Below, in pieces: positions 4,529-23,846 of a stretch of 23,846 nucleotides of DNA. Position 1 is the stretch's first letter; each line of letters opens with the position of its first letter. This stretch comes from Podospora anserina (Eukaryota): positions 5,208,001 to 5,231,846 of the forward strand of contig CM030333.1 in NCBI GenBank assembly GCA_017654855.1. Direction: 5' to 3'. The notes under the pieces are model-generated. The model was given only the letters and a program-made list of their open reading frames with translations. It had not been told where the DNA came from and searched no databases. The position numbers and the translations under genes were made by a program.

Positions 4529-4537
4529 GTATATAAG
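4529..4537 (+). promoter_or_regulatory. Putative TATA box of the 4679 gene
   Basis: GTATATAAG about 150 bp upstream of the ATG, followed by a pyrimidine-rich leader (4570-4630). Confidence 0.45.
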
Positions 4538-4678
4538 ACTGGACGGGGAGCATGGAAACCGCAATCAAGCTCTCTTCACCTCTCACACTCTCACCTACAA
4601 CACTTCCTGCGACTTCATCTTCCTATCGGTCATTTGTCAATTCCTTCATTGCGAATCAACATTCTACAATCTCACACC

Positions 4679-5881
4679 ATGGCTTCCACTACCGTCGCCC
4701 CGACTGTTGATTTCAAAGGTATTGCAATCCACCTCGGCCGCTATTGCTACTCCGTCATCGCCTTCCTCCAGCTCCCCACAGACGTAGCATGGAGGCGCAC
4801 AGTTTCGGCAATCCAAGCCGCCAACACGGCAACATTCATGGCGATCAACCTCTATGTTCAGTTGTGCATCAACGTCGTGCGGCAATTCATCAACAACTCC
4901 TGGAACTCCATCGTGTCATCAGTACAGCAGGCCAGCACTACCGTCATTGCCGTGGTTGAATCTGTCAAGCTCACCGTCGGCCTCGGACTCGACTATCTCT
5001 TCAGCGCTGCGACCAACGCCACGAAAGCCTTCATCAGCCTTTTTGTCGACTACCTGCCTACCATTGCTGTCGGCTTCTACTCCGAAATGAGGAAGGAGGT
5101 CACGTTTCAACACATGAAGACCATGAACATGGTCCTCTTAGCCTCGAGTCTCGTATGGTTTTATCTTCGAAGATGTGTTGAGGTCGGCACCCCTGCTTTG
5201 CCCGCCAAAGACGGCCAGGTGACCAGTACTCGCAAGTGGAGGAGACGTTTTCAAGTTGTCCTTAGGGAGCTCGCCAGTCTCCTTGTCCTCAGTTCTGTCC
5301 TCTCCTACGCCGCAATGCCAGAGTGGACCGCCGCCACCATTGCCTCGTGGCTGTCTGCAGCGGCTGACCGACTGAGTTTTCTATCATCGATAGTTATGGA
5401 GAGAGTGAACCCCGTTTACGTCGCCGTGGTTGAAGGTACAAATTATCATCTTGGCAATCTCATTGAGGAATGTGTTTCTCGACTGCCACCAATATTGGAG
5501 AGAATTGAACCGGTTTATGGTGCCCTTGGTGGAGACAGTATCAGGCTTCAGCTCATCAAATTCGCCGGGGACTGTTTTGAGCGACTCCCACCGCGACCAG
5601 ACTGGCATCCGTGGGTGGGTATGTCTAGAGATGTTGGAATAGGGGTGTTGGCACCGATTATTCTCGGTGGCCACGGTCCTTCACCTTCTCCCATTTGCGC
5701 AGCCAGCAACACCAGCTCAACGCTCATCAAGAGTTCAGCTCCACCAACAATACCGGAACCCGCCCTCTCCTATCAGGGAGACGCTATGGTGGTGTTGCCT
5801 TTTTTGATGTATGTTATTGCGGCTTGGGATTTAGTAATGCTGGTGCGGCGACGACAAAGGAAAGGACAGGATCGGGCATGA
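4679..5881 (+). CDS. Hypothetical ~400-aa multi-pass membrane protein
   Basis: Long ORF with the first ATG in a good context (CACCATGG at 4679). Several hydrophobic segments and a C-terminal TM followed by a basic RRRQRK. No family recognised. Confidence 0.7.
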   Translation: MASTTVAPTVDFKGIAIHLGRYCYSVIAFLQLPTDVAWRRTVSAIQAANTATFMAINLYVQLCINVVRQFINNSWNSIVSSVQQASTTVIAVVESVKLTVGLGLDYLFSAATNATKAFISLFVDYLPTIAVGFYSEMRKEVTFQHMKTMNMVLLASSLVWFYLRRCVEVGTPALPAKDGQVTSTRKWRRRFQVVLRELASLLVLSSVLSYAAMPEWTAATIASWLSAAADRLSFLSSIVMERVNPVYVAVVEGTNYHLGNLIEECVSRLPPILERIEPVYGALGGDSIRLQLIKFAGDCFERLPPRPDWHPWVGMSRDVGIGVLAPIILGGHGPSPSPICAASNTSSTLIKSSAPPTIPEPALSYQGDAMVVLPFLMYVIAAWDLVMLVRRRQRKGQDRA

Positions 5882-6076
5882 ATAAGGGGGTCAAGGAAAG
5901 AGGGTGCATATGTAGATACAGATTCTAAGAAATAGAACAGGAACACAATCTGTTGTTCCTAGTTTATGCCCGATGCCCCACGTCAATATTTTCACTATTT
6001 AATAGGTCCACATTCTAAACTGTAAAATAGGTTAATAGAAATATATTTAAAGAACTTGTGAGGCTGTATCTAAAAC

Positions 6077-6141
6077 CCCTAATACTTATTCTCTAATGGA
6101 TAGTAGTATAATCCGTTAAAAAGTATATTGAAAAAACGTCC
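6077..6141 (+). mobile_element. Degenerate relic of the element left terminus (copy E0)
   Basis: CCCTAATACTTATTCTCTAATGGATAGTAGTATAATCCGTTAAAAAGTATATTGAAAAAACGTCC aligns with the termini at 6976, 7555, 14656 and 19082. Confidence 0.7.
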
Positions 6142-6158
6142 TGTTGTGAGCCTCCGAG

Positions 6159-6535
6159 TGTGACGAACCTCTATCTAGAATCTCTGAAAGGGATACCGGT
6201 TGAAGGCTCTTCTGAACAATCCTGGTTCGGTATAGCTAGTCAGTGTACAATAAATGGCTTATCTCGATCACAATAGCTAAGATACTAACGATTGTAACTT
6301 ATATTGCATACTGCGGAACTATCTATCTACACTAGCTAGTTCCTCCGTATATATAGACCCAATGCCGAGCCCGGCACTATCCTAGATCGATAGACTCGAC
6401 TATCGATCCTATCGATATTATTCCTTTTGGGGTTGACTCCCCTAGATCGATCCTCGATCCCCTTAACGTATATTATAAGCGAGTCGTATATATAAGCGAG
6501 TCGTACAGTCTCTACCACGACGCGTCCTCCTTACA
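6159..6535. mobile_element. Putative solo LTR (~377 bp)
   Basis: Begins TGTGA and ends TTACA (TG..CA, imperfect inverted termini). Flanked by CCGAG/CCTAG (4/5 match, possible TSD). Non-coding, with an internal TATATA and short direct repeats (TATAAGCGAGTCGTA x2). Confidence 0.5.
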
Positions 6536-6564
6536 CCTAGCATTAATTTTTTCCACAGCCCAAT

Positions 6565-6694
6565 ATGCCTCCTACTTTAAAGGAAGCTAGGATACTCTTA
6601 GCCCTTAAGCCTCCGAGCTGCAGCTAAACTCTACAACGTACTAGCTATGACTCTCTCTAACCGACGCGCCGGCCGGCCTACACGACGCGATATA
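6565..6694 (+). pseudogene. Fot1/pogo-type (Tc1-mariner superfamily) transposase N-terminal HTH fragment
   Basis: MPPTLKEARILLAL-[deletion/frameshift]-SLRAAAKLYNVLAMTLSNRRAGRPTRRD matches the characteristic EARILLAL...SxRxAAxxYxVPxxTLxxRxxGRxxRRD start of fungal Fot1/Pot transposases. Truncated at about 6694. Confidence 0.8.
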
Positions 6695-6975
6695 TGTGAC
6701 AAGGGCTGTAATATTAGGGCTTGGAACTCATGGTTCAATTCAGGCTAATAATCTTCAATGGCCTCGAAGAGCGTGATAAAGAAGAAGAAGGTCTAGGAAT
6801 ACAAATAGCTTTTGAGAACGCGTCTTTATCCTTCGCCCAGTGGTCCGTGCATTGTGGCCTTAGGCCGCTACTAAGTCTTTCAATATCTTAGGTTAACTAA
6901 TATTATTTCCTTAATAACCGCGAAGCTTATAATTATCTGCCTCACTTTAACTACTGGCTTATAACGTGCAGTTAC

Positions 6976-7554
6976 CCCTATCAGTTATTCTCCGATGGAT
7001 TGTAGTACAATCCGTTAAGAAACGTACCAAAAAAAACGCCTCACTTTGGAAATAGGGGGTAGGATCCGTTAAGAATTTAGTTATACGATCCGATAAGATT
7101 TTCTTTACCAAAACAAAAGAAAAAAATATTATTAGAATCGTTTGAACGAGTGTTACAACCCTGGGGTATAGACGAGAATAACGATTAGTTATAGAATTAC
7201 GGGAGCAGGGGCTAATCGGGAAAATACTTAGAAGAGCTAATTACAGGGAAGGACGGTAATTAGTGCGATTAGAACACTAATTAGACTAAGCAGGCTAGGC
7301 CGAGGTAATTAGTGTAATTAAGACACTAATTAAGCTAAACGTAAATAATTAGTATACTCGGAATACTAATTAAAAGAATTACAGCTAGGAAAAAAAGTTT
7401 ATATATATAGAGGAACTAACTAATATAAATAAATAGTTCCGTAATATATAATTTATAATTATATTTACGGTATTTTATATTTATATTAAAATATTTTATT
7501 ATATATTATTTAATTATACCGAACTAATTATTAAAAATTACCTTTAATTAATAT
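6976..7554 (+). mobile_element. Element copy E1: same terminus, divergent interior, truncated
   Basis: The first ~175 bp match the terminus plus part of one 202-bp unit. After about 7150 the sequence is unrelated to E2-E4 until the next terminus at 7555. Confidence 0.75.
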
Positions 7555-7654
7555 CCCTATTAGTTATTCTCCGATGGATTATAGTACAATCCGTTGAAAA
7601 GCGCACCAAAAAAAAGGCCCCACTTTAGAAACAGGGGTAGGATCCGTTAAAGAA

Positions 7655-10600
7655 TTCAGTTGTACGATCCGATGGGATTTCTCCCGTTAAAATAAAAAGT
7701 AAAGATAGTATTAGAATCGCCTGGACGAGCTGTATAGAATGGTATAAGGTGTATTATTGTATAAGCGGTGTAGAATTATAAATAAAAGATATAAAGTTAG
7801 GTATAAGTATGCTAGTAATGCACGTAGATAGTAAAGTAAGGTTAGGTAATAGAAAAGTAAGTTATACGATCCGATAGGATTTCTTCCGTCAAAATAAAAA
7901 GTAAAGATAGTATTAGAATCGCCTAAACGAGCTATATAGAATAGTATAAAGTATATTATCGTATAAGCGGTATAGAATTATAAATAAAAGATATAAAGTT
8001 AGGTATAAGTATATTAGTAATATACGTGGATAGTAAAGTGAGGTTAGGTAATGGAAAGGTAAGTTATACGATCCAATAGGATTTTTCCTATTAAAATAAA
8101 AAACAAAGATAATATTAAAATTGCCTAAACGAACTATATAAAATAATATAAAGTATATTATCGTATAAGCGGTATAGAATTATAAGTAAAAAATATAAAG
8201 TTAAGTATAAGTATATTAATAATATACGTAAATAGTAAAGTAAGGTTAAGTAATAAAAAAGTAAGTTATACGATCCGATAGGATTTCTCCTATTAATATA
8301 AAAAGTAAAAATATTATTAAAATTACCTAAACGAGCTATATAAAATAGTATAGGGTATATTATTATACGAACGGTATAGAATTATAAATAATAAATATAA
8401 AGTTAAATATAAATATATTAGTAATGTACGTAAATAGTAAAGTGAGGTTAGGTAATAAAAAAGTAAATTATACGATCCGATAGGATTTCTTTTATTAAAA
8501 TAAAAAGTAAAGATACTATTAAAAATAATTTAACGAATTATATAAAATAATATAAAATATAGTATTATATAAGCGGTATAGAATTATAAATAAAAAATAT
8601 AAAGTTAGGTATAAGTATATTAATAATATACGTAAATAGTAAAGTAAGGTTGGGTAATAGAAAGGTAAATTATACGATCCGATAGAATTTCTTTTATTAA
8701 TATAAAAAGCAAAAACACTATTAGAATTACCTAAACGAGTTGTATAGAATAGTATAGGGTATATTATTATACGAGTAGTATAGAATTATAAATAGTAAAT
8801 ATAAAGTTAAATATAAGTATATTAATAATATATATAGATAGTAAAGTGAGGTTAGGTAATAGAAAAGTAAGTTGTACGATCCGATAGGATTTCTCCTATT
8901 AAAATAAAAAGTAAAGATATTATTAAAAATAATTAAACGAGCTATATAAAATAATATAAAGTATATTATCGTACGAGCGGTATAGAATTATAAATAAAAG
9001 ATATAAAATTAAATATAAGTATATTAGTAATGTATATAAATAGTAAAGTAAGGTTAAGTAATGGAAGGGTAAGTTATACGATCCGATAGGATTTCTCCTA
9101 TTAATATAAAAAGTAAAGATATTATTAAAATTACTTAAACGAGTTATATAAAATAGTATAAGGTATATTATTATATAAGCGGTATAGAATTATAAATAGT
9201 AAATATAAAGTTAGGTATAAATATACTAGTAATATACGTAAATAGTAAAGTAAGGTTAAGTAATAAAAAAGTAAGTTATACGATCCGATAGGATTTTTCC
9301 TATTAAAATAAAAAGTAAAAATATTATTAAAAATAATTAAATAAGTTATATAGAATAGTATAAGGTATATTATTGTATGAACGGTATAGAATTATAAGTA
9401 AAAAATATGAAGTTAGGTATAAGTATATTAGTAATATACGTGGATAGTAAAGTAAGGTTAGGTAATAGAAAGGTAAATTATACGATCCGATAGGATTTCT
9501 TTTATTAATATAAAAAGTAAAGATACTATTAGAATTATTTAAACGAACTATATAGAATAGTATAGGGTATATTATTATATGAGTAGTATAGAATTATAAA
9601 TAGTAAATATAAAGTTAGGTATAAGTATATTAATAATATATGTAAATAATAAAATAAGATTAGGTAATAGAAAAGTAAATTATATAATCCGATAGGATTT
9701 CTTTTATTAAAATAAAAAGTAAAGATACTATTAAAATTACTTAAACGAGCTATATAGAATAGTATAGGGTATATTATTGTATAAGCGGTATAGAATTATA
9801 AATAGTAAATATAAAGTTAGGTATAAGTATATTAGTAATATATGTAAATAGTAAAGTGAGGTTGGGTAATAAAAGAGTAAGTTATACGATCCGATAGGAT
9901 TTCTTTTATTAAAATAAAAAGTAAAGATACTATTAAAAATAATTAAACGAGCTATATAGAATAGTATAAGGTATATTATTATACGAGCGGTATAGAATTA
10001 TAAGTAAAAAATATAAAGTTGGGTATAAATATATTAGTAATATATGTAGATAGTAAAGTGAGGTTAGGTAATGGAAAGGTAAGTTATACGATCTAATGGG
10101 ATTTCTCTTATTAATATAAAAAGTAAAGATACTATTAGAATTATCTAAACGAGTTATATAGAATAGTATAGGGTATATTATTATATAAGCGGTATAGAAT
10201 TATAAATAGTAAATATAAAATTAAGTATAAGTATATTAGTAATATACGTAGATAGTAAAGTAAGGTTGGGTAATAGAAAAGTAAGTTATACGATCCGATA
10301 GGATTTTTTTTATTAAAATAAAAAGTAAAGATATTATTAAAAATAATTAAACGAGTTATATAGAATAGTATAAGGTATATTATTATACGAGCGGTATGGA
10401 ATTGTAAATAAAAGATATAAAGTTAAGTATAAGTATATTAATAATATATATAGATAGTAAAATAAGGTTAAGTAATAGAAGGGTAAGTTATATAATTTAA
10501 TAAGATTTTTCCTATTAATATAAAAAGTAAAAATACTATTAGAATTGCTTAAACGAGTTATATAGAATAGTATAAGGTATATTATTATACGAGCGGTATA

Positions 10601-11432
10601 AAATTATAAATAATAAATATAAAGTTAGGTATAAGTATATTAATAATATACGTAAATAGTAAAGTAAGGTTAAGTAATAGAAAAGTAAGTTATACGATCC
10701 AATAGGATTTTTTTTATTAAAATAAAAAGTAAAAATATTATTAAAAATAATTAAATAAGCTATATAGAATAATATAAAATATATTATTATACGAGCGGTA
10801 TAGAATTATAAATAAAAGATATAAAGTTAAGTATAAGTATATTAGTAATATATATGGATAATAAAGTAAGGTTAGGTAATGGAAGGGTAAGTTATACGAT
10901 CCGATAGGATTTCTCTTATTAATATAAAAAATAAAGATACTATTAAAATTACTTAAACGAGCTATATAAAATAATATAAAGTATATTATTATATAAGCAG
11001 TATAAAATTATAAATAATAAATATAAAGTTAAGTATAAGTATATTAATAATATATATAAATAGTAAAGTAAAGTTAGGTAATAAAAAAGTAAGTTATACG
11101 ATCCGATAAGATTTCTTTTATTAAAATAAAAAGTAAAAATATTATTAAAAATAATTAAACGAGTTATATAGAATAATATAAAGTATATTATTATACGAAT
11201 AATATAAAATTATAAGTAAAAGATATAAAGTTAGGTATAAGTATATTAATAATATACGTAGATAGTAAAGTGAGGTTAGGTAATAGAAAGGTAAGTTATA
11301 CGATCCGATAGGATTTTTTTTATTAATATAAAAAGTAAAGATACTATTAAAATTACTTAAACGAGTTATATAAAATAGTATAAAGTATATTATTATACGA
11401 ACGGTATAGAATTATAAATAAAAAATATAAAA
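7655..11432. repeat. 202-bp tandem array, ~18.7 units, RIP-mutated
   Basis: The TACGATCCGA anchor falls at 7663, 7865, 8067 ... 11299: 19 anchors at exact 202-bp spacing. Units differ mainly by transitions. Confidence 0.95.
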
Positions 11433-11462
11433 TTAATTGATTTTTATTATTATATAATTTAT

Positions 11463-11981
11463 TTAATTATCGGAATTATTAATAACTATAAGCTTTTAAC
11501 TTTTTTCCGCCGCTCCCTTATTTCCTTCGCTCTTTTCTTCGGCTTTAATACCATTTTATTTAGTAATATAGAAATTATATTTATTACCGTAATCCCTTTA
11601 CTTATAATTATTATAAATATTACCCTAGTACCTATCTATCGTACGATAATCCTTAAACGGCCCTCTATTAAGCTTATTAGTATAAGTAATATAGGGAGAA
11701 ATAGTTACTAAACTACGGCTTTAAATTAAAATTATATTTAGGTAGTTCGGACGAATTAATACTTTAGCCCCCTTTACTTTACCGGGGATATATTTAATAT
11801 CGGCCGATAGTAGAGCCAAAATTATTTATTGTATCTCCTATATATTTATTAGTTTAAATATTATTATACGGGAAAAATATATATTAATATTAATATAGAA
11901 ACTATTTATTAGGCTCTTAATATAAGGCTAGTTAATATCGATAACCTTATACGAGTTACGGGTAGTAAGGATAAAAGTTAT
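11463..11981 (-). pseudogene. DUF3716-like Cys-cluster protein gene, RIP-inactivated (copy in E2)
   Basis: Colinear with 17281-17799 at offset 5818; see that feature. The start position is approximate. Confidence 0.7.
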
Positions 11982-12329
11982 TTTAAATATTTATTTAAAA
12001 GTTAATTAATTTATATAATTAAAAGTTTATTAGAAAAGGGCTTTAATTAGAATTAAACCTATACTTTTAAAAACTTTAAGACCGTATATACCGCTTAGTT
12101 ATTATGCTTTAAGATCTTTATATTATCTTTTAAGCGATAATACTAATAAATAATAAATTTATAAACTTTATATAAAAATTATATAATATTTTTTTACTAT
12201 TATATAATATTTTATTATACGATATTTATATTATTTTATTATACGATATTTATATTATTTTATTATACGATAAGCTTACTATATAACCGTCCGGGAATTA
12301 AATATCTATATTTTTTAATTAAACTTTAT

Positions 12330-13967
12330 TATACGGCACTTAGACGACTTAATTAGAATAATAAAACTATATTATATAGTTAGTTTGTCGAGGGATTTAG
12401 AAGAAAAGGCCTGCTTTGTAGACCTAGACCCCGGCAACCGTACGCCACTGCCTTTTTGCCGAGGCATGCCCTAACTATTATACGGAACTAGTAACTATAC
12501 GCTACTGCCTTCCTGCCGAGGCATGCCCTAACTATTGTACGGCACCTAGACGCTTTGATCGGAATAATAACGCTTTATTATAAAGCTGGCCTGTCGAGGG
12601 ATTTAGAAAAAAAGGTCCGCTTTTAAAGACCTAGATCCGGCAACCGCACCTTACTGCCTTCCTGCCTAGGCATACCCTGACTATCGTACGGTACTTAAAC
12701 GCCTTAATCGGAATAACAAAGCTCTGTTATATAGCTGGGCAATCGAGGTAATTAGAAGAAATGGTCCTAGATCCTCGTAGCCGCACGCCACTGCCTTCGC
12801 GCCTAGGCGAGCCTTGTTTACCGTACGGGACCTAGACGCCTGGATCGGAATAACAAGGCTCTATTATATAGCTGGGCAGTCGAGGTAGTTGGAAGAAATG
12901 GTCCCAGATCCTCGCAGCCGTACGCTACTACCTTCGTGCTTAGGCGAGCCCTAATTACCGTACGGGACGTAGATCCTTGCAGCCGCACGCCACTACCTTT
13001 ACGCCTAGGCGAGCTTTGCTTACCGTACGGGACCTAGACGCTTGGATCGGAATAATAAGGCTTTGTTATATAGTTGGGCAATTGAGGTAGTTGGAAGAAA
13101 TGGTCCTAGATCCTCGCAGCCGCACGCCACTGCCTTCGTGTTTAGGCGAGCCCTAACTACCGTACGGGACGTAGATCCTCGTAGCCGCACACTACTGCCT
13201 TTATGCCTAGGCGAGCCTTGCTTACCGTACGGGACCTAGACGCTTGGATCGGAATAATAAAGCTCTGTTATATAGTTAGGTAGTCGAGGTAGTTGGAAGA
13301 AATGGTCCTAGATCCTTGCAGCCGTACGCTACTGCCTTCGCGCTTAGGCGAGCCTTGCCTACCGTACGGGACCCAGACGTCTGGATCGGAATAATAAAGT
13401 TTTATTATATAGCTGGGTAATCGAGGTAGTTGGAAGAAATGGTCCTAGATCCTCGTAGCCGCACGCCACTACCTTCGTGCCTAAGCGAGCCCTAACTACC
13501 GTACGGGACGTAAATCTTCGCAGCCGCACGCCACTGCCTTCGCGCTTAGGCGAGCCTTACCTACCGTACGGGACCTAGACGCCTGGATCGGAATAATAAA
13601 GCTTTGTTGTATAGCTGGGTAATCGAGGTAGTTAGAAGAAATAGTTTTAGATCCTCGCAGCCGCACGCTACTGCTTTCGTGCTTAAACGAGCCTTACTTA
13701 CCGTACGGGACCTAGACGCTTAGATCGGAATAATAAAGCTTTATTATATAGCTAGCCTATCGAGGGATTTAAAAGAAAAGGCCTACTTTAAAGAAAAAGG
13801 TTTGCTTTTATAGACCTAGACCCCGGCAACCGCACGTTACTACCTTCTTACCCAGGTACGCCCTAACTATCGTATAGGACTAGTAACCGTACCTTACTAC
13901 TTTCCTACCTAAATACGTCTTAACTATTGTACGGGATTTAGACCCCGGTAACCGCACGTTACTACCC
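12330..13967. repeat. GC-rich composite tandem array (E2)
   Basis: GGAATAA anchors at 12355, 12561, 12710, 12847, 13049, 13251, 13388, 13590 and 13727 (spacings 206, 149, 137, 202, 202, 137, 202, 137). The 202 unit is the 137 unit plus a duplicated 65-bp subunit. Confidence 0.92.
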
Positions 13968-14099
13968 TTATCTACTTATACGTAACCCACTTTACCTTTA
14001 ATAGGATATCCTTTTTTAAAAAAACTTACTAATAAACTTTAATTTAATAATATTTCGTATTATATATAATTATTATATTATTATTAATACTATATTAAA

Positions 14100-14655
14100 A
14101 TAAATCCTTTTATTTATATTTCCCGCTTTTAAATTTTTATTTATAGGAAATATAAAGTAATTATTTTTATAAATAAAGTATTTACTTATTTTTATATATT
14201 TTATAAAGATATTATAATTATAAATAGATTAAATATCGTATGAAAGTATAATAATTTATTAATAGTTTTTCGAAAATAATAAAATTTAATAAACTTTATA
14301 TTTCTTTTTATAGTAATTAATTTAATTTTAAAACTAAAGAAACTTTTTTTTAATAAATTAAAGTACGATATTTACGTTTATATTATATGGATTAAGAGGG
14401 TAATATAAAAGTATTACTATACGAGGTACGATTAGGTTAACCTTAATATAAAAGGGGGAAATATTAAAGTAACTTAATAATATTAAGGACTTTAAATAAT
14501 TAGGATATATTATTAACGGTTTTTTAAAAGTTAATTAATTATTAAATATTTTAAGGTACGATTAACGGAGCCGGTAGTCGGGAGTTCTAACCTCGTATAA
14601 TAAATTTAAAAACGAAAAAAATAGTTTATAGTATTTTATTATACGATTAGCTTAA
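14100..14655 (+). pseudogene. DUF3505-like zinc-finger gene 5' part, RIP-inactivated, cut at the E3 terminus
   Basis: Colinear with 22954-23509. Starts ATA(ATG) AAT CCT TTT = MNPF. Confidence 0.7.
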
Positions 14656-14756
14656 CCCTATCAGTTATTCTCCGATGGATTGTAGTACAATCCGTTAAAA
14701 AGCGCACCAAAAAAAAGGCCCCACTTTAGAAATAGGGGGTAGGATCCGTTAAAGAA

Positions 14757-17250
14757 TTTAGTTGTACAATCCGATAGGATTTCTCCCGTTAAAATAAAAA
14801 GTAAAGATAGTATTAGAATCGCCTGGACGAGCTGCATAGAATGGTATAAGGTACATTATCGTACGAGCGGTATAGAATTATAAACAAAAGATATGAAGTT
14901 AGGTATAAGTATGCTGGTAATGTACGTGGATAGTAAAGTGAGGTTAAGTAATAGAAGGGTAAGTTATACGATCTAATAGGATTTCTCTCGTTAAAATAAA
15001 AAATAAAGATAGTATTAAAATTGCTTAAACGAGTTATATAGAATAGTATAAGGTATATTATTGTACGAGTAGTATAGAATTATAAATAAAAGATATAAAG
15101 TTAGGTATAAGTATACTAATAATATATGTAAATAGTAAAGTGAGGTTAGGTAATAGAAGGGTAAGTTGTACGATCCGATAAGATTTTTTTTATTAATATA
15201 AAAAGTAAAGATACTATTAAAATTACTTAAATGAGTTATATAGAATAGTATAGGGTATATTATTGTACGAGCGGTATAGAATTATAAATAATAAATATAA
15301 AGTTAGGTATAAGTATATTAGTAATATACGTAAATAGTAAAGTAAGGTTAGGTAATAGAAAGGTAAATTATACGATCCGATAGGATTTCTTTTATTAATA
15401 TAAAAAGTAAAGATACTATTAGAATTATTTAAACGAACTATATAGAATAGTATAGGGTATATTATTATATAAGCGGTATAGAATTATAAATAGTAAATAT
15501 AAAATTAAATATAAGTATATTAGTAATATACGTAGATAGTAAAGTAAGGTTGGGTAATAGAAAAGTAAGTTATACGATTTAATAAGATTTCTCCTATTAA
15601 AATAAAAAGTAAAGATATTATTAAAAATAATTAAACGAGTTATATAGAATAATATAAAGTATATTATTGTACGAGCGGGATAGAATTATAAATAAAAGAT
15701 ATAAAGTTAGGTATAAATATACTAGTAATGTACGTAAATAATAAAGTAAGGTTAGGTAATAGAAGGGTAAGTTGTACGATCCGATAGGATTTTTTCTGTT
15801 AAAATAAAAAGTAAAGATAGTATTAGAATCGCTTAGACGAATTATATAGAATAGTATAAGGTATATTATTATACGAGCGGTATAGAATTATAAATAAAAA
15901 ATATAAAGTTAGGTATAAATATATTAGTAATGTACGTAGATAGTAAAGTAAAGTTAAGTAATAAAAAAATAAGTTATATAATCCGATGGGATTTTTCCCG
16001 TTAAAATAAAAAGTAAAGATAGTATTAGAATTACTTAAACGAGTTATATAGAATAGTATAAAGTATATTATCGTACGAGCGGTATAGAATTATAAGTAAA
16101 AGATATAAAGTTAAGTATAAATATATTAGTAATATATATAGATAGTAAAGTAAGGTTAAGTAATAGAAGGGTAAGTTATACGATCCGATAGGATTTCTCT
16201 TATTAATATAAAAAGTAAAAACATTATTAAAATTACTTAAACGAGCTATATAGAATAGTATAGGGTATATTATTATACGAGTGGTATAGAATTGTAAATA
16301 GTAAATATAAAGTTAAGTATAAGTGTGCTAGTAATGCACGTAGATAGTAAAGTGAGGTTGGGTAATAGAAGAGTAAGTTGTACGATCCGATGGGATTTCT
16401 CCCATCAAAATAAAAAGCAAAGATACCATTAGAAACAACTAAACGAGCTGCACAGAATAGTAAATAAAAGATATAAAGTTAGGTATAAGTATGCTAGTAA
16501 TGTACGTAGATAGTAAAGTGAGGTTGGGTAATGGAAGGGTAAGTTGTACGATCCGATGGGATTTCTCCCGTCAAAATAAAAAGCAAAGATAACATTAAAA
16601 TTACCTAAACGAGCTACATAAAATAGTATAAGGTACATTATTGTATAAGCGGTATAGAATTATAAGTAAAAAATATAAAGTTAAGTATAAATATACTAAT
16701 AATGCACGTAGATAGTAAAGTAAGGTTGGGTAATAGAAAGGTAAGTTATACGATCCAATAGGATTTCTCCTATTAATATAAAAAATAAAGATATTATTAG
16801 AATTACCTAAACGAGCTGCATAGAATAGTATAGGGTGTATTATCGTACGAGCGGTATAAAATTATAAATAATAAATATAAAGTTAGGTATAAGTGTACTA
16901 GTAATATACGTAAATAGTAAAGTAAGGTTAGGTAATAAAAAAGTAAGTTGTACGATCCGATAGGATTTCTCCCATTAAAATAAAAAGCAAAGATACTATT
17001 AGAAATAACTGAACGAGCTGCACAGAATAGTAAGTAAAAAATATAAAGTTAGGTATAAGTATACTAGTAATGCACGTAGATAGTAAAATAAAGTTAAGTG
17101 ATGGAAGGGTAAGTTATACGATCCGATAGGATTTCTCCCGTTAATATAAAAAGTAAAGATACTATTAGAATTACCTAAACGAGCTATATAAAATAATATA
17201 AAGTATATTATCGTATAAACGGTATAGAATTATAAATAAAAAATATAAAA
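14757..17250. repeat. 202-bp tandem array, 13 anchors, two 166-bp deletion units
   Basis: Anchors at 14765 ... 16381, 16547, 16749, 16951, 17117. The units starting at 16381 and 16951 lack 36 bp. Confidence 0.95.
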
Positions 17251-17280
17251 TTAATCGATTTTTATTATTATATAACTTAT

Positions 17281-17799
17281 TTAATTATCGGAATTACTAA
17301 TAACTATAGGCTCCTAATTCTTTTCTGCCACTCTCTTATTTTCCTCGCTCTCTTCCTCGGCTTTAGTACCGCTTTATTTAGCGGTATAAAAGCTATATTT
17401 ACTACCGTAATCCCTCTATTTATAATTACTATAAGCATTACCTTAGTACCTATCTATCGTATAATAATCCTTAAACGGCCCTCTATTAAGCTTATTAGTA
17501 TAGGTAGTATAGGGAGAGGTAGCTATTAAATTACGGTTCTAGATTAAAACTATATTTAGGTAGTTCGGACGAGTTAGTACTTTAGCCCCCTTTACTTTGC
17601 CGGAGATGTATTCGATATCGGCCGATAGTAGAGCCGAAATTATTTATTATGTTTCCTATATATTTATTAATTTAAGTATTATCGTACGGGAAAGATATAT
17701 ATTAATATTAATATAGAAGCTATTTATTAGGCTCTTAATATAAGGCTGGCTAGTGTCGATAACTTCGTACGAGCCACGGGTAATAAGGATAAGAGCTAT
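17281..17799 (-). pseudogene. DUF3716-like Cys-cluster protein gene (~170 aa), RIP-inactivated (best-preserved copy)
   Basis: One minus-strand frame whose stops are all TAA/TAG (revertible to CAA/CAG/TGG). Reverting TAT>TGT gives ..RPNY....I..SPCTTC..KLNRGPFKDC..IDRYQGNACSNCKWRDHGSKCSF...EEESEE...EPIVISDSDD*, i.e. the CxxC..GPF..C..CxNCxW..C pattern of fungal DUF3716 (PF12511). The start codon is uncertain. Confidence 0.75.
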
Positions 17800-18122
17800 T
17801 TTAAATATTTATTTAAAAATTAATTAATTTATACGATTAAAAGTTTATTAGAAAAGGGCCTTAATTAAAATTAAACCTATACCTTTAAAAACTTTAAAAC
17901 CGTATATACCGCTTAATTATTATACTTTAAGATCTTTACATTACCTCTTAAGCAATAATACTAATAAACGATAAATCTATAAACTCCGTATAAAAATTAT
18001 ATAATACTTTTTTACTATTATATAATATTCTATTATACGATATTTATATTATTCTATTATACGATAAGCCTACTATATAACCGTCCGGGAACTAAATATC
18101 TATATCTTTTAATTAAACCTTA

Positions 18123-19081
18123 TCGTACGGCACCTAGACGGCTTAATCGGAATAATAAAGCTATATTACATAGCTAGCCTATCGAGGGATTTAGAAGAAA
18201 AGGCCTGCTTTACAGACCCAGACCCCGGCAACCGCACGCCACTGCCTTCCTGCCGAGGCATGCCCTGACCATCGTACGGGACTAGCAACCATACGCCACT
18301 GCCTTCCTGCCGACGTATGCCCTAACCATCGTACGGCACCTAGACGCTTTGATCGGAATAATAACGCTCTGTTACAAAGCTGGCCTATCGAGGGATTTGG
18401 AAGAAAAGGTCCGCTTTTAAAGACCCAGATCCGGCAACCGCACCCCACTACCTTCCTGCCCAGGCATGCCCTGACTATCGTACGGCACCCAGACGCCTTA
18501 ATCGGAATAACAAGGCTCTATTACACAGCTAGGCAGTCGAGGTAATTAAAAGAAATGGTCCCAGATCCTCGCAGCCGCACGCCACTACCTTCGCGCCCAG
18601 GCGAGCCTTGCCTACCGTACGGGACCCAGACGCCTGGATCGGAATAACAAGGCTCTGTTGCACAGCTGGGCAGTCGAGGTAGTTGGAAGAAATAGTCCCA
18701 AATCCTCGCAGCCGCACGCCACTGCCTTCGTGCCCAGGCGAGCCCTAACTACCGTACGGGACGCAGATCCTCGCAGCCGCACGCCACTGCCTTCGCGCCC
18801 AGGCAAGCCTTGCCTACCGTACGGGACCCAGACGCCTAAATCGGAATAACAAGGCTCTGTTGCATAGCTAGGCAGTCGAGGTAGTTAGAAGAAATGGTCC
18901 CAGATCCTCGCAGCCGCACGCCACTGCCTTCGTACCCAGGCGAGCCTTGCCTACCGTACGGGACCCAGACGCCTGGATCGGAATAACAAAGCTCTGTTGC
19001 ACAGCTAGGCAGTCGAGGTAGTTGAAAGAAATAGTCCCAGATCCTCGCAGCCGCACGCCACTACCTTCGTGCCCAGGCGAG
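18123..19081. repeat. GC-rich composite tandem array (E3), truncated
   Basis: Anchors at 18149, 18355, 18504, 18641, 18843 and 18980 (spacings 206, 149, 137, 202, 137). Confidence 0.92.
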
Positions 19082-19182
19082 CCCTATCAGTTATTCTCCA
19101 ATGGATTATAGTACAATCCGTTGAAAAGCACACCAAAAAAAAGGCCCCACTTTAGAAACAGGGGGTAAGATCCGTTAAAGAA

Positions 19183-20738
19183 TTCAGTTATACGATCCGA
19201 TGGGATTTCTCCTATCAAAATAAAAAACAAATATAGTATTAGAATCGCCTAAACGAGCTACACAGAATAGTATAAGGTATATTATTGTACGAGCGGTATA
19301 AAATTGTAAGTAAAAGATATAAAGTTAGGTATAAGTATACTAATAATATACGTAGATAGTAAAATAAGGTTGGGTAATAGAAAAGTAAGTTATACGATCC
19401 GATGGGATTTCTCCCGTTAAAATAAAAAGTAAAAATAATATTAGAATCGCCTGGACGAGCTACATAGAATAGTATAAAATATATTATCGTACGAACGGTA
19501 TAGAATTATAAGTAAAAAATATAAAGTTAGGTATAAGTATATTAATAATATACGTAAATAGTAAAGTAAGGTTAAGTAATAGAAAAGTAAGTTATACGAT
19601 CCAATAGGATTTCTTTTATTAAAATAAAAAGTAAAAATACTATTAAAAATAATTAAACGAGCTATATAGAATAGTATAAAGTATATTATTATACGAGCGG
19701 TATAGAATTATAAATAAAAAATATAAAGTTAGGTATAAGTATATTAGTAATATATATGGATAGTAAAGTAAAGTTAAGTAATAGAAACGTAAGTTATACG
19801 ATCCGATAGGATTTCTCTTATTAATATAAAAAATAAAGATATTATTAAAATTGCTTAAACGAGTTATATAGAATAATATAGGGTATATTATTATACGAGC
19901 GGTATAGAATTATAAATAGTAAATATAAAATTAAATATAAATATATTAATAATATATATAAATAGTAAAGTAAGGTTAAGTAATAAAAGGGTAAGTTATA
20001 CGATCTAATAGGATTTCTCCTATTAATATAAAAAGTAAAAATATTATTAAAATTACTTAAACGAGTTATATAGAATAATATAAAGTATATTATTATATAA
20101 ATAATATAAAATTATAAATAATAAATATAAAGTTAAATATAAATATATTAGTAATATACGTAAATAATAAAGTAAGGTTAAGTAATAAAAGAGTAAATTA
20201 TACGATCTAATAAAATTTTTTTTATTAAAATAAAAAGTAAAGATACTATTAAAAATAATTAAACGAGTTATATAGAATAGTATAAAGTATATTATTATAC
20301 GAGCGGTATAGAATTATAAGTAAAAAATATAAAGTTAGGTATAAATATATTAGTAATGTACGTAGATAGTAAAGTGAGGTTGGGTAATAGAAGGGTAAGT
20401 TATATAATTTAAGAAAATTTTTTCTATTAATATAAAAAGTAAAAATACTATTAAAATTATTTAAACGAGTTATATAGAATAGTATAAGGTATATTATTAT
20501 ACGAGCGGTATAGAATTATAAATAATAAATATAAAGTTAAATATAAGTATATTAGTAATATATGTAAATAGTAAAGTGAGGTTAAGTAATAGAAAAGTAA
20601 ATTATACGATCCGATAGGATTTCTTTTATTAATATAAAAAGTAAAGATATTATTAGAATTACTTAAATGAGTTATATAAAATAATATAAAGTATATTATT
20701 ATACGAGTAGTATAAAATTATAAATAAAAAATATAAAA
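19183..20738. repeat. 202-bp tandem array, ~7.7 units
   Basis: Anchors at 19191, 19393 ... 20605 (8 anchors, exact 202-bp spacing). Confidence 0.95.
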
Positions 20739-20768
20739 TTAATTAACTTTTATTATTATATAATTTAT

Positions 20769-21287
20769 TTAATTATTAGAATTATTAATAACTATAGGCT
20801 CCTAGTTTTCTTCCGCCACTCCTTTATTTCCTTCGCTCTTTTCTTCGGCTTTAGTACCGCTTTATTTAGCGGTATAGAAACTATATTTACTACTGTAATC
20901 CTTTTACTTATAATTATTATAAGTACTACCCTAATACTTATTTATCGTACGATAATCTTTAAACGGCCCTTTATTAGGCTTATTAGTATAGGTAGTATAG
21001 GGAGAGGTAACTATTAAACTACGGCTTTAGATTAAAACTATATTTAAGTAGCTCGGACAAGTTAGTACTTTAGTCCCCTTTACTTTACCGGGAATGTATT
21101 TAATATCGGCCGATAGTAAAGCCGAAATTACTTATTATATTTTTTATATATTTATTAATTTAAATATTATTATACGGGAAAAATATATATTAATATTAAT
21201 ATAGAAGCTATTTATTAGGCTCTTAATATAAGGCTAACTAATATTAATAACCTTATACGAGCTACGGGTAATAAGGATAAAAGCTAT
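20769..21287 (-). pseudogene. DUF3716-like gene, RIP-inactivated (copy in E4)
   Basis: Colinear with 17281-17799 at offset 3488. Confidence 0.7.
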
Positions 21288-21514
21288 TTTAAATATTTAT
21301 TTAAAAGTTAATTAATTTATACGATTAAAAGTTTATTAAAAAAGGGCTTTAATTAGAATTAAACCTATACCTTTAAAAACTTTAAAACTATATATACTAC
21401 TCAGTTATTATACCTTAAAATCTTTATATTACCTTTTGAGTAATAATACTAATAAACGATAAATCTATAAATCCCGTATAAGAATTATATAATACTTTTT
21501 TACTATTATATAAT

Positions 21515-21602
21515 ATTCTATTATACGATATTTATATTGTTCTATTATACGATATTTATATTGTTCCATTATACGATATTTATATTATTCCATTGTACGA
21601 TA
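21515..21602. repeat. 24-bp VNTR (TTCCATTGTACGATATTTATATTG-like)
   Basis: 4 TACGAT-containing units here, 3 in E2 (~12210-12272) and 2 in E3 (~18028-18066). Confidence 0.8.
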
Positions 21603-21659
21603 GGCCTACTATGTAACCGTCCGGGAACTAAATATCTATATCTTTTAATTGAACTTTAT

Positions 21660-22821
21660 TATACGGTACCCAGACGGCTTGATCGGAATAATAAGGCTAT
21701 GTTACACAGCTGGCCTGTCGAGGGATTTGGAAGAAAAGGCCTGCTTTGCAGACCCAGACCCCGGCAACCGCACGCCACTGCCTTCCTGCCGAGGCATGCC
21801 CTGACTATCGTACGGGACTGGCAACTATACGCCACTGCCTTCCTGCCGAGGCATGCCCTGACCATCGTACGGCACCCAGACGCTTTAATCGGAATAATAA
21901 CGCTCTGTTGCAAAGCTGGCCTGTCGAGGGATTTGGAAGAAAAGGTCCGCTTTTAAAGACCCAGATCCGGCAACCGCACCCCACTGCCTTCCTGCCCAGG
22001 CATGCCCTAACTATCGTACGGCACCCAGACGCCTTAATCGGAATAACAAGGCTCTGTTATATAGCTGGGCAGTCGAGGTAGTTGGAAGAAATGGTCCCAG
22101 ATCCTCGCAGCCGCACGCCACTGCCTTCGCGCCCAGGCGAGCCTTGCCTACCGTACGGGACCTAGACGCCTGGATCGGAATAACAAGGCTCTGTTGCACA
22201 GCTGGGCAGTCGAGGTAGTTGGAAGAAATGGTCCCAGATCCTCGCAGCCGCACGCCACTGCCTTCGTACCCAGGCGAGCCCTAACTACCGTACGGGACGC
22301 AGATCCTCGCAGCCGCACGCCACTGCCTTCGCGCCCAGGCGAGCCTTGCCTACCGTACGGGACCCAGACGCCTGGATCGGAATAACAAGGCTCTGTTGCA
22401 CAGCTGGGCAGTCGAGGTAGTTGGAAGAAATGGTCCCAGATCCTCGCAGCCGCACGCCACTGCCTTCGTGCCTAGGCGAGCCCTAACTACCGTACGGGAC
22501 GCAGATCCTCGCAGCCGCACGCCACTGCCTTCGCGCCCAGGCGAGCCTTGCCTACCGTACGGGACCCAGACGCCTGGATCGGAATAACAAGGCTCTGTTG
22601 CACAGCTGGCCTGTCGAGGGATTTGGAAGAAAAGGCCTGCTTTGGAGGAAAAGGTTTGCTTTTGCAGACCCAGACCCCGGCAACCGCACGCCACTGCCTT
22701 CCTGCCCAGGCACGCCCTGACTATCGTATGGGACTGGCAACCGCACCCTACTGCCTTCTTGCCTAGGCACGCCCTGACTATCGTACGGGACCTAGACCCC
22801 GGTAACCGTACGCCACTACCC
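21660..22821. repeat. GC-rich composite tandem array (E4)
   Basis: Anchors at 21685, 21891, 22040, 22177, 22379 and 22581 (spacings 206, 149, 137, 202, 202). Units are nearly identical. Confidence 0.93.
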
Positions 22822-22953
22822 TTATTTATTTACACGTGACCCACTTTACCTTTAATAGGGTATTCTTTTCCAAAAAAATTTATTAATAAACTTTAATTTA
22901 ATAACATCTCGTATCGTATATAACTATTATATTACTATTAATACTATACTAAA

Positions 22954-23846
22954 ATAAACCTTTTTATTTATATCTCCCGCTTTTAAATTTTTATTTATAG
23001 GAAATATAAAGTAATTATTCTTATAAATAAGGTACTTATTTATTTTCGTACGTTTTATAAAGATATTATAGTTATGGATAAACTAAATATTGTATAAAAG
23101 TATAATAATTTACTAGCGGTCTTTCGAAAATAATAAAATTTAATAAACTTTATACTTCCTTTTACGATAATTAATTTAATTTTAAAATTAGGGAAGCCTT
23201 CTTTTAATAAATTAAAGTGCGATACTTATACTTATATTATACGGACTAAAAGGGTAATATAAAAGTATTATTGTACGAGGTACGATTAGGTTAACCCTAA
23301 TATAAAAAAGGGAAATATTAAGGTAGTTTAATAATATTAAGGACCTTAAATAATTAAAATATATTATTAATAGTTTTTTAAAAGCCGGTTAATTATTAAA
23401 TATTTTAAAGTACGATTAATAGAGCCGGTAACCGGAAGTCCTAACCTTATATAATAAATTTAAAAACGAAAAAAATAGTTTATAGTATTTTATTATATAA
23501 TTAATTTAACCTTTTAATAAATATTAATAATTATTATAATAAGTAAAAAATAATTAATTTTAAATCCTTAATTAAATAGGATAGATTAAGTATATTACTT
23601 TAGGTTTTTAAACCGGTAAATTATATATCGTTTAACTTTTTTTAATTTAAACGAGGGATAATTAAACGGTAAAAATTTAATTACTTTTATAGTCCTTTAT
23701 AAAATTTAAGAGAGGATTAATTAAGTTATTACCGATATAATAATAAAATTATCGTTTAATAAAGTTAATTATTTAATTTTATTCGAGATTAATAAAAAAA
23801 TAATTAATTAAAAATCCTTTAAACCTTTTAATAATAATAGCTTAAT
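22954..23846 (+). pseudogene. DUF3505-like C2H2 zinc-finger gene (N-terminus typical of fungal telomere-linked RecQ helicase-like proteins), RIP-inactivated, runs off the window
   Basis: One frame from 22954. Reverting RIP changes gives MNPF.H..RF.I..CRKCK..V...EV..HFRT.H...P..ELGKP....LKCD.C.Y..RT.R.MQKHC.T.HDWVNP..KKG......GPW....HCQQFFKS....YFEV...NPWL.R..W..Y, which matches the DUF3505 (PF12013) motif order. No helicase motifs are visible within the window. Confidence 0.75.

Follow-up and report, generated by a model that had tools for sequence, protein, structure and literature searches.

A RIP-inactivated tandem element of Podospora anserina, probably of the telomere-linked helicase type, with a DUF3716 partner gene

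Architecture of the repeat units

The stretch of Podospora anserina DNA analyzed here (the window, 23,846 nucleotides in full) carries three colinear head-to-tail units (A, B and C), delimited by self-BLAST and TRF (Table 1). We regard these units, with considerable confidence, as right-truncated copies, accompanied by two end relics (E1 and E2), of a RIP-inactivated element of the telomere-linked helicase (TLH) type. Weighing this identity together with the mode of spread discussed below, we find the overall explanation favored on balance, if modestly. Each long copy has the same order of parts: a leader of ~103 bp, a 202-bp AT array, a minus-strand gene wreck, a 24-bp VNTR and a GC array. 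A plus-strand gene wreck follows the GC array in units A and C only; unit B ends inside its own GC array. An earlier note on this DNA, made from the letters alone, had described three long colinear copies and two terminal relics with ordered parts, and our analysis recovered the same arrangement. Orientation is identical in all five copies. Copy-number shifts inside the arrays indicate that slippage or unequal exchange took place.

Table 1. Coordinates of the units, their parts and the end relics in the window.
Feature	Position	Strand	Remarks
Relic E1	6077..6141 (end approximate)	+	Leader's first 48-65 bp, begins CCCTAA; 3 mismatches in the 45-nt purine/pyrimidine match
Relic E2	6976..7150	+	Complete leader plus ~70 bp of the first 202-bp unit
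Unit A	7555-14655		7101 bp
Unit A leader	7555..7657	+	Terminus, begins CCCTA; 9-12 bp subterminal hairpin
Unit A 202-bp AT array	7658..11435	+	18.7 copies, RIP-saturated; three CGTACG-derived sites per 202-bp unit
Unit A DUF3716-like wreck	11472..11945	-	In-box HMM match 11517-11855
Unit A 24-bp VNTR	12180..12272		4.0 copies
Unit A GC array	12332..13785		65/137/202-bp periods, partly RIP-mutated; one CCGTACGG per subunit
Unit A OrsD/DUF3505-like N-terminal region	14109..14570	+	RIP-aware profile; gene interrupted at 14655 by unit B
Unit B	14656-19081		4426 bp
Unit B leader	14656..14759	+	A/B junction has CC in common
Unit B 202-bp AT array	14760..17254	+	8.4 copies plus 166-bp variant units
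Unit B DUF3716-like wreck	17290..17763	-	phmmer, hhalign, in-box HMM
Unit B 24-bp VNTR	18016..18066		2.1 copies
Unit B GC array	18120..19081		Interrupted at native CCCTAA, the start of unit C; RIP index 1.02, not RIP-mutated
Unit C	19082-23846		At least 4765 bp, runs past the window end
Unit C leader	19082..19185	+	B/C junction has CCCTA in common
Unit C 202-bp AT array	19186..20745	+	7.7 copies
Unit C DUF3716-like wreck	20778..21251	-	HMM match 20805-21134
Unit C 24-bp VNTR	21504..21602		4.1 copies
Unit C GC array	21662..22800		RIP index 1.18, not RIP-mutated; between the two divergent genes
Unit C OrsD/DUF3505-like N-terminal region	22963..23424	+	RIP-aware profile; frame continues to the window end

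All five copies begin at an identical base, at CCCTA, and their upstream flanks are unrelated, in agreement with the base-precise left end that had been claimed for them. A 26-nt terminus pattern (up to 3 mismatches) matched four places in the window versus none expected, and a purine/pyrimidine-coded 45-mer recovered the five copies with 0-3 mismatches. Even with this RIP-proof coding, no inverted copy of the terminus was found in the window; minus-strand matches to it fall only inside the leaders themselves. At the B/C junction the leader meets the native CCCTAA of a GC unit, and at the A/B junction it meets the AACC of the unit A tail. E2 is flanked by inverted-repeat arms of ~150 bp (6200-6360 and 7395-7548), which look like another transposon. 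Tests for target duplication were weak or negative (p ~0.02 for E1, where the candidate is not adjacent to the end, and 0.44 for E2).

The differences between copies carry the mark of RIP. Three pairs of spacers differ by 101, 103 and 93 transitions and the tails by 123, with no transversions in either comparison. RIP indices outside the GC arrays range from 0.09 to 0.29, and the RIP load of the GC arrays declines from A through B to C.

A DUF3716 gene and a divergent OrsD/DUF3505 gene

The minus-strand gene is a homolog of DUF3716 (PF12511), a Cys-rich domain of ~59 residues (RPSYLNAvLIQSRG ... six Cys ... NCKWRDH). A direct Pfam scan of the read-through frames missed the wreck. The read-through frame of unit B, searched with phmmer against 1.84 billion proteins, gave seven matches at E <= 1e-3 (best 2.7e-6); Pfam finds PF12511 in six of them, five at or above the cut-off. 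Aligned with six natural DUF3716 members, the frame reached an hhalign probability of 98.8% (E 9e-17, 110 columns). Furthermore, an in-box HMM found a single site in each unit, at 67-75 bits, and no other in the window. In all three copies the six conserved Cys and the His all read as Tyr, and the conserved Gln and Trp as stop codons. These Cys/His-to-Tyr and Gln/Trp-to-stop changes are all of RIP type, matching the RIP prediction.

The plus-strand gene begins with a region similar to OrsD/DUF3505 (PF12013), an N-terminal domain of ~114 residues with two C2H2-like fingers. No OrsD/DUF3505 was found in the plus-strand frames by direct Pfam, by a word-based search or by plain phmmer with the relative L075. 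We therefore used a RIP-aware profile, made from the N-termini of four metagenome relatives (L075, L023, L012 and L036, with PF12013 assigned by Pfam in L075, L023 and L036). As an author-made profile calibrated within the window and on shuffles rather than against a curated threshold, it scored 186.6 in unit A and 181.1 in unit C versus at most 105.6 in all other frames of 5900-23846; shuffle controls had means of 68-78 and a maximum of at most 101. The alignment takes in all 155 profile columns, including both fingers, and the conserved CQRFF block appears in unit A as Y, stop, R, F, F. Both genes thus have the identities that the earlier note had proposed for them, a Cys-cluster gene like DUF3716 and, divergent from it, a zinc-finger gene like DUF3505.

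The part of the plus-strand gene in view comprises ~185 codons in A, where the gene is cut, and ~295 codons in C, where it leaves the window; it is absent from B. Further similarity was undetectable in the unit C frame between 23424 and the window end. A DEAD/Helicase_C part would lie outside what the window covers of this gene, and a helicase domain that is unseen in all three units counts against the TLH reading.

The palindrome CGTACG is enriched 20-40-fold in the element and likewise in most DUF3716-bearing loci. The CGTACG-rich arrays may provide binding sites for a zinc-finger protein encoded by the element, most simply DUF3716, and the GC array is a putative common upstream region of the two divergent genes.

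Metagenome relatives and the telomere

DUF3716 relatives are encoded at 80 metagenome loci, in 6 of which the neighboring large ORF belongs to one helicase-type cluster. Pfam places OrsD at the N-terminus of the large ORF in L075, L036, L044 and L023, and the first three of these four relatives also carry DEAD and Helicase_C. L044 has the divergent gene order of the window. In L075 the helicase begins near residue 1320, the contig is full of tandem arrays and ends in (TTAGGG)20, and the helicase gene is directed toward the telomere. Hence, the pair of DUF3716 and helicase genes adjoins a real telomere in this intact relative. Because both genes were identified in the window and the relatives encode an OrsD-helicase ORF beside DUF3716, the units are best read as TLH-type with a DUF3716 partner, as had been suggested. 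The occurrence of DUF3505 at the N-terminus of telomere-linked helicases, which the earlier note mentioned, is in print, in accounts that place DUF3505-helicase proteins in subtelomeres (bioRxiv 10.1101/2023.02.05.527183; PMC5576322).

The window itself gives conflicting hints about a former telomere. TLH genes adjoin telomere repeats, and the window nowhere has two or more telomere repeats in a row: each unit is preceded by one CCCTA only. On the plus strand CCCTA has the orientation of the C-strand, which would place the former telomere on the left, where ordinary genes now flank the array. The direction of the helicase gene in L075 would place it on the right. The two hints contradict each other.

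How the units may have spread

The earlier note had seen no DDE transposase, RT or Rep motif, and we also found none: 27 read-through frames gave no Pfam family at all, a weak negative given that these scans missed the DUF3716 wreck too. The element has two divergent genes, a small DUF3716 zinc-finger gene and an OrsD/DUF3505 double-finger gene that in intact relatives continues into DEAD/Helicase_C. The GC array and VNTR lie between them, and the 202-bp array and CCCTA-starting leader beyond the DUF3716 gene. We propose that each new copy was attached, by short microhomology (CCCTA, CC) at the first bases of its leader, to an older copy that was broken or eroded. Spread would then proceed through end-directed copying, akin to the break-induced or telomere-attrition-induced replication known from subtelomeric repeats, rather than through a conventional transposase. 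Telomere-attrition-induced replication is described as a source of subtelomeric tandem arrays in which telomere motifs bound both full and truncated units (PMC8381367). We advance this mode of spread tentatively, as a possibility that falls short of a probable one. Five shared ends and two microhomology junctions are the whole basis on which self-propagating behavior may be proposed. Erosion-driven joining would be expected to nibble sometimes into the leader, so the exact ends of all five copies count against it, as does the placement of E2, which is more suggestive of an insertion than of addition to an end.

Such an insertion would suit a class II transposon, of the REP9/Styx kind or another family with terminal inverted repeats (TIRs), which we consider unlikely. 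Such a transposon would have the leader as its left terminal repeat and would have left E1 and E2 as solo ends and B and C as nested or local insertions, with the transposase and right end beyond the window. DUF3716 genes are also cargo of REP9/Styx, described in Zymoseptoria as 7.9 kb long with two DUF3716 genes, solo TIRs and local tandem triplications (PMC8232023, PMC10853768). Unit A, at 7.1 kb, is of comparable size, E2 sits in another inverted-repeat element, and DUF3716 genes adjoin hAT-type ORFs at 19 metagenome loci. However, the window, in which every copy has its right end missing or out of view, holds no inverted terminus copy and, in a weak test, no rve/DDE signal; the five copies face the same direction, and both native-target junctions show microhomology rather than target duplication. 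The plus-strand gene is, moreover, of TLH type, and the available text on REP9/Styx reports no such gene (PMC8232023, PMC10853768). Tandem copies could also reflect mere local duplication of a satellite-rich region that RIP had mutated and that carried two dead genes, the end being a duplication boundary and mobility absent. The adjacency of all long copies and the copy-number changes in the arrays are consistent with this improbable scenario. Unequal exchange, however, joins homologous positions, yet a tail and a GC array meet the same leader base, and the isolated relics E1 and E2 have that base amid unrelated flanks.

A fixed end with the other end variable (65 bp, 175 bp, 4.4 kb, 7.1 kb) is the pattern of non-LTR elements, and a retroelement read on the minus strand would have the leader as its fixed 3' end and 5'-truncated copies. 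Its copies would have been added successively to a chromosome end on the right or by target-primed reverse transcription at CCCTA-like nicks. The microhomology between upstream DNA and the end, the hairpin near the leader end, flanking genes on the side expected for the centromere and the falling RIP load of the GC arrays all agree with it, and telomere-linked retroelements that contain internal tandem repeats and occur as truncated copies in tandem are described in fungi (PMC4522978, PMC12857005). We nevertheless doubt this origin strongly. Among the traits of Penelope-like and non-LTR elements, neither an RT ORF (by a weak test), nor a hammerhead, nor C-strand telomere repeats at the 3' end were found; Rfam gave no match to any family at E <= 1. 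The DUF3716 gene and the leader end are separated by the 202-bp array alone, the TLH-type gene would lie antisense, and the duplication tests were weak or negative. The fixed end, read as a 3' end, also carries the G-strand motif, opposite to endonuclease-free Penelope-like elements as described in PMC8557442. A plus-strand Helitron-like rolling-circle element whose 5' end is fixed, whose 3' ends vary and whose copies lie in tandem seems very improbable. The end is A followed by TC in three of the five copies and by TT, one RIP-type transition away, in unit A (E1 differs), with a hairpin nearby, and tandem copies in Pyrenophora with a DUF3505 ORF near the 5' edge are attributed to a Helitron-like element (bioRxiv 10.1101/2025.11.13.688278). 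Against it, CCC precedes this A in all five copies, and the junction in the native target of unit C lacks an AT dinucleotide. Neither a Rep nor a Pif1-type helicase was seen, and the helicase of the relatives is of DEAD/Helicase_C type.

Comparison with known systems

Yeast Y' elements form helicase-bearing subtelomeric head-to-tail arrays that are copied by recombination when telomeres fail, and their copies are full length and separated by telomere-repeat tracts. The earlier note's analogy to Y' holds for the head-to-tail helicase-type unit and fails for the telomere tracts: here a single CCCTA lies between units, the older units are each truncated, and there is no sequence relation. Fungal TLH repeats are also known from Magnaporthe, where TLH genes adjoin blocks of tandem repeats. 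Those of Colletotrichum higginsianum (telomere-associated families of 11-18 kb) and Fusarium oxysporum are described as having an N-terminal DUF3505/OrsD in a large gene (PMC5576322; bioRxiv 10.1101/2023.02.05.527183). Like them, the element combines a multi-kb repeated unit, tandem blocks beside the gene and RIP damage with, in its relatives, DEAD and Helicase_C; the window shows neither the helicase part nor a telomere. The DUF3716 partner, the 202-bp and 65/137-bp arrays, the dense CGTACG and the base-precise end have no mention in the available portions of PMC5576322 and bioRxiv 10.1101/2023.02.05.527183.

The attrition arrays of Pyricularia likewise consist of one full unit and variously truncated copies that all face the same way, and telomere motifs mark the unit boundaries (PMC8381367). 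Those arrays are built of a retroelement-like unit, with 6-34 telomere repeats at the boundaries (PMC8381367), whereas the boundary motif here is a single one of 5 bases, in a locus that now lies internally and has been mutated by RIP. Among class II transposons, the IS3EU-related REP9/Styx of Zymoseptoria (~8 kb) resembles the element in its small six-cysteine DUF3716 genes, its solo ends and local tandem copies, and in having relatives killed by RIP (PMC8232023, PMC10853768). What sets Styx apart is an integrase-like transposase together with inverted ends of 36-43 bp and duplications of 6 bp, and the text at hand reports no helicase gene for it (PMC8232023, PMC10853768); such ends and such an enzyme were not seen in the window. 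The telomere-targeted non-LTR retrotransposons MoTeR and FoTeR resemble the units in the telomere-like motif at a conserved end, the repeat-rich region and truncated, RIP-decayed copies co-located with TLH genes (PMC12857005; PMC8381367). In contrast, they are described as encoding a reverse transcriptase, carrying short VNTR motifs and being followed by 3-7 telomere repeats (PMC12857005; PMC8381367); neither RT, by a weak scan, nor a telomere tract was found in the window. The earlier claim that the element falls outside the standard classes was too strong, since TLH-type subtelomeric repeats are an already known kind. What is new in this element is its DUF3716 partner and its carpet of CGTACG motifs.

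Architecture of the repeat element

Positions 1–5900 of the window are ordinary fungal DNA (52% GC) with three ORFs, one of which has 232 homologues among filamentous ascomycetes; a Pfam scan of the three returned no family. The ORF at 2636–3991 is a member of a conserved ascomycete family of hypothetical proteins (75% identity to the best hit); it ends in a Gly/Cys-rich tail and has no Pfam family, and an Atlas search with it gave no match. From approximately position 5900 on, the sequence is repeat-rich and mostly 17–30% GC. Self-comparison and Tandem Repeats Finder identified three colinear, head-to-tail units in this part (A, B and C) and two short relics of their left end (E1 and E2). Each long unit contains, in this order, a leader of approximately 103 bp, a 202-bp AT array, a spacer of approximately 0.9 kb, a 24-bp VNTR and a GC array with periods of 65, 137 and 202 bp. 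An AT-rich tail extends beyond the GC array in A and C. The AT-rich and GC-rich 202-bp units showed no detectable homology even when RIP-type changes were allowed (z = 1.3), and none of the cyclic shifts of the former against the latter was outlying. Rfam and tRNA scans found no candidates, an ORF in the GC array had no homologues, and a literature search for a 202-bp repeat with RIP found no description. Just upstream of unit A are three tandem units of approximately 45 bp, each with an internal palindrome around TAATTAGTG...CACTAATTA.

Coordinates of the features in the window
Feature	Position	Strand	Basis or remark
Flank ORF	2636–3991		conserved ascomycete hypothetical-protein family
Relic E1	starts 6077		short copy of left end
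Inverted repeat, left arm	6200–6360		approximately 150 bp
Pogo/Fot1-like stretch	~6566–6700	+	authors' reading
Relic E2	6976–7150		short copy of left end
Palindromic tandem units	7257–7372		three units
Inverted repeat, right arm	7395–7548		approximately 150 bp
Unit A	7555–14655		self-comparison and Tandem Repeats Finder
AT-rich 202-bp units	7658–11435		compared with GC-rich 202-bp units
GC-rich 202-bp units	12768–13372		compared together with their copies
OrsD/DUF3505-like match in A	14109–14570	+	profile score
Unit B	14656–19081		self-comparison and Tandem Repeats Finder
Leader stem (example)	14672–14696		perfect stem
GC array of B	18120–19081		RIP index
Unit C	19082 to window end		self-comparison and Tandem Repeats Finder
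GC array of C	21662–22800		RIP index
OrsD/DUF3505-like match in C	22963–23424	+	profile score

All five copies start at the same base (CCCTA) with the same leader, and the DNA on their left is unrelated. With three colinear units and five copies sharing one exact end, the repeat element described in the earlier note is real. Unit A ends approximately 870 bp into its tail, precisely at the first base of the B leader, and the junction has 2 bases (CC) in common with the leader. Unit B ends within its own GC array, precisely at the first base of the C leader; the native GC unit reads CCCTAA at this point and thus shares 5 bases with the leader. The leaders retain a perfect stem of 9 bp, or of 12 bp if two G-T pairs are counted, located 17–41 nt from the terminus. 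Folded as RNA, the whole leader was not more stable than its shuffles (z = -0.54). Purine/pyrimidine coding also suggested a longer terminal palindrome, but this is largely accounted for by one arm being pyrimidine-rich and the other purine-rich; we discarded it and retained the 9–12 bp stem alone. A search of the metagenome contigs with the leader pattern gave 0 matches.

Relic E2 is surrounded by an inverted repeat whose arms differ by RIP-type transitions and whose right arm stops within a few bases of the unit A leader. Inside it lies a stretch that we take to resemble the N-terminus of a pogo/Fot1-type transposase.

RIP history of the units

The copies differ in the manner expected from RIP. 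Pairwise comparisons of the spacers revealed 101, 103 and 93 transitions and 0 transversions, and the tails of A and C differ by 123 transitions and 0 transversions. Similarly, 886 of the 978 differences from the consensus of the 202-bp arrays are G>A or C>T. Compared with B, unit A has T/A at 96 of 117 transition sites; compared with C, it does so at 126 of 146. The RIP index, (CpA+TpG)/(ApC+GpT), is 0.09–0.29 in arrays, spacers and tails, and reaches 0.59 (intermediate) in the GC array of A, 1.02 in that of B and 1.18 in that of C. The GC arrays of B and C thus carry no RIP signature next to RIP-saturated DNA; they are the only parts of the window element that escaped RIP and are also the densest in the palindrome CGTACG. 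A deRIP consensus, one of the checks proposed in the earlier note, recovers little from three copies: built from three spacers and two tails, it had only 32–33% GC and no convincing ORF because the CpA sites are saturated in all copies.

RIP-tolerant searches reveal two ruined genes

Pfam searches with 27 read-through frames (stops as X) retrieved no family even at an E-value of 10, a scan insensitive to RIP wrecks. One minus-strand frame of the spacer stands out for having 16–18 stops, compared to up to 43 in other frames. An exhaustive phmmer search with the unit B version of this frame against 1.84 billion proteins recovered 7 hits at E ≤ 1e-3 (best, 2.7e-6), all over residues 112–223. Pfam assigned DUF3716 to 6 of the 7 (five at or above the cut-off and one just below it) and no family to the other. 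A source name is attached to three of the seven, and the two of these that specify an organism are both from Sordariales. Furthermore, when six natural members were aligned to the frame with hhalign, the probability was 98.8% (E = 9e-17), and an HMM built from these members matched one site per unit, at 67–75 bits, and nowhere else in the window. All the conserved cysteines and the conserved histidine are tyrosines in 3/3 copies, and the conserved glutamine and tryptophan are stops, which are exactly the codon changes that RIP makes. Several of the phmmer hits (P0122, P0123, P0124) also have tyrosine at conserved cysteine positions. These Tyr-bearing database relatives are probably translations of RIP-mutated pseudogenes from other fungi. 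An AlphaFold2 model of one natural DUF3716 protein, based on 6 sequences, reached a pLDDT of 42.8, too low to use.

For the plus-strand gene in the tail, a word-based search with the tail frame found no match, and plain phmmer with the OrsD-helicase protein of metagenome locus L075 against the six window frames returned nothing significant. We therefore matched a profile of four natural N-termini to every frame of positions 5900–23846, allowing codon T->C and A->G reversions at a small penalty. The two best scores, 186.6 in A and 181.1 in C, fall at homologous positions on the plus strand; no unrelated score exceeded 105.6, and shuffling of profile columns or codons (60 trials each) gave means of 68–78 and maxima of at most 101. 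The alignment spans all 155 columns, including both fingers and the conserved block behind them. When the TLH (telomere-linked helicase) profile was extended past position 23424, no frame stood out. Both gene assignments of the earlier note, a DUF3716-like gene on the minus strand and a DUF3505-like gene on the plus strand, were therefore borne out. Standard Pfam negatives are uninformative here because the genes are RIP wrecks; indeed, standard scans missed both genes, which came to light only in RIP-tolerant searches.

Intact relatives in metagenomes

A metagenome scan with the DUF3716 alignment recovered 80 loci, whose ORFs we clustered before scanning the representatives with Pfam. Recurrent neighbors of the DUF3716 gene are a hAT-type ORF (19 loci), a Copia-type RT (7 loci), an NDC10_II-domain ORF (3 loci) and a large helicase-type ORF cluster (6 loci: L001, L012, L023, L036, L044 and L075). 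Pfam identified an N-terminal OrsD/DUF3505 domain in L075, L036, L044 and L023 and DEAD plus Helicase_C domains in L075, L036 and L044; L012 and L001 belong to the cluster solely by tblastn to L075. Pairwise identity among the six ORFs is only 24–60%. The 10.7-kb contig of L075 contains the DUF3716 gene, a 2077-residue OrsD-helicase ORF, 2 kb of further sequence and a terminal (TTAGGG)20, with many tandem arrays around both genes. At least 12 different short arrays (periods of 12–125 bp) occupy positions 1–2440 of this contig, upstream of and between the two genes; GTACGA forms the core of many of them. The divergent gene order of the window recurs in L044, where no telomere was found at the contig end. 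In the window, two divergent genes flank a repeat-rich intergenic region and further arrays lie outside them, an arrangement that echoes these intact relatives. The element is most likely an inactivated TLH-type unit in which DUF3716 is the partner gene.

A palindrome that often accompanies DUF3716

The window element (7555 to the end) has 41 CGTACG sites where 1.0 is expected, compared to 0 in the flanking genes (1–5900; 1.7 expected) and 13–43 in each of the six TLH-type loci (about 1–2 expected in each). Enrichment, defined as 5 or more sites and a 5-fold or greater excess, was found in 53 of the 80 DUF3716 loci, some of which are near-duplicates. Of 9 long loci, 4 have sharp islands of 6–9 sites per kb around the DUF3716 gene and hardly any sites elsewhere; no island is seen in the remaining 5. 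Examples of these islands, in which the motif is mostly TCGTACGA, lie at 10–13 kb in L006, 9–13 kb in L014, 2–10 kb in L034 and 7–11 kb in L070. For the 9 long loci taken together, sites number 2.51 per kb up to 2 kb from the gene and 0.15 per kb at distances above 5 kb. The islands coincide with DUF3716-bearing elements of hAT-like, Copia-like, NDC10-domain and TLH type.

The GC arrays of the window have 8.4 CGTACG sites per kb, and at three offsets of the 202-bp unit the palindrome or a C>T/G>A derivative is present in 31–32 of 32 units. CGTACG contains no CpA and therefore largely survives RIP. A literature search for this motif (TCGTACGA) in fungal transposons found no account. The single fungal case found, in the accessible text of the source, comes from Pseudocercospora fijiensis, where TCGTACGA is repeated in a promoter and the number of repeats goes along with lowered sensitivity to fungicide (PMC6637983). 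We infer that DUF3716 may bind the CGTACG palindrome, with the forms TCGTACGA and CCGTACGG as candidate targets.

Mode of spread and comparison with known systems

A real terminus is favored by the five exact ends, each of which lies in a different context, and the microhomology at the two heterologous junctions points to end joining or template switching there. Copies may have been joined by one of these routes at the first bases of the leader. Plain local duplication and a minus-strand retroelement are rival explanations. Other rivals are a Styx-like class II element, as characterized in the available portions of the reports (PMC8232023, PMC10853768), and a Helitron-like element (bioRxiv 10.1101/2025.11.13.688278, available portion). 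The test for target duplications gave a weak signal for E1 and none for E2. The available text on Stagonospora repeat families (PMC3017866, PMC2621366) and Coprina elements (PMC13159263) provided leads only.

A broader reading, which we consider rather unlikely, is that TLH-type units are true site-directed mobile elements carrying a DUF3716/CGTACG module shared with unrelated fungal transposons. A hairpin-bearing, base-precise end would join beside a telomere-repeat unit (CCCTA), and this would account for the presence of TLH-type units at chromosome ends. The portable module, common to hAT-like, Copia-like and NDC10-domain elements, would have two parts: the small DUF3716 zinc-finger protein and its presumed binding site, (T)CGTACG(A), a RIP-proof palindrome present at 6–9 copies per kb over the whole element. 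Together they could mark the element's own DNA, for example by driving expression or blunting silencing.

The locus and its intact relatives offer three features open to testing: the exact end and its microhomology junctions; DUF3716 as a constant small partner gene; and a short palindrome that is spread densely over the element and makes up its two satellites. Should DUF3716 bind CGTACG, a widespread domain of unknown function would gain a role and a self-marking system common to several transposon classes would emerge.

That fungi carry telomere-linked helicase repeats has been known for decades. According to the accessible parts of two reports (PMC5576322; bioRxiv 10.1101/2023.02.05.527183), subtelomeric repeats in fungi are marked by DUF3505-helicase proteins. 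The documented process closest to the spread proposed here is telomere-attrition-induced replication, which, as far as the available text describes it, generates arrays in which full and truncated subtelomeric units share one orientation and are bounded by telomere motifs (PMC8381367). Against spread of this type are the single CCCTA at each boundary, a leader that is never nibbled, conflicting hints of orientation and the position of E2 inside another inverted-repeat element. The TLH/Y'-like interpretation of the earlier note was largely right. The element is not a new class: the window most likely holds a TLH or Y'-like subtelomeric element, an already known kind, with unreported features.
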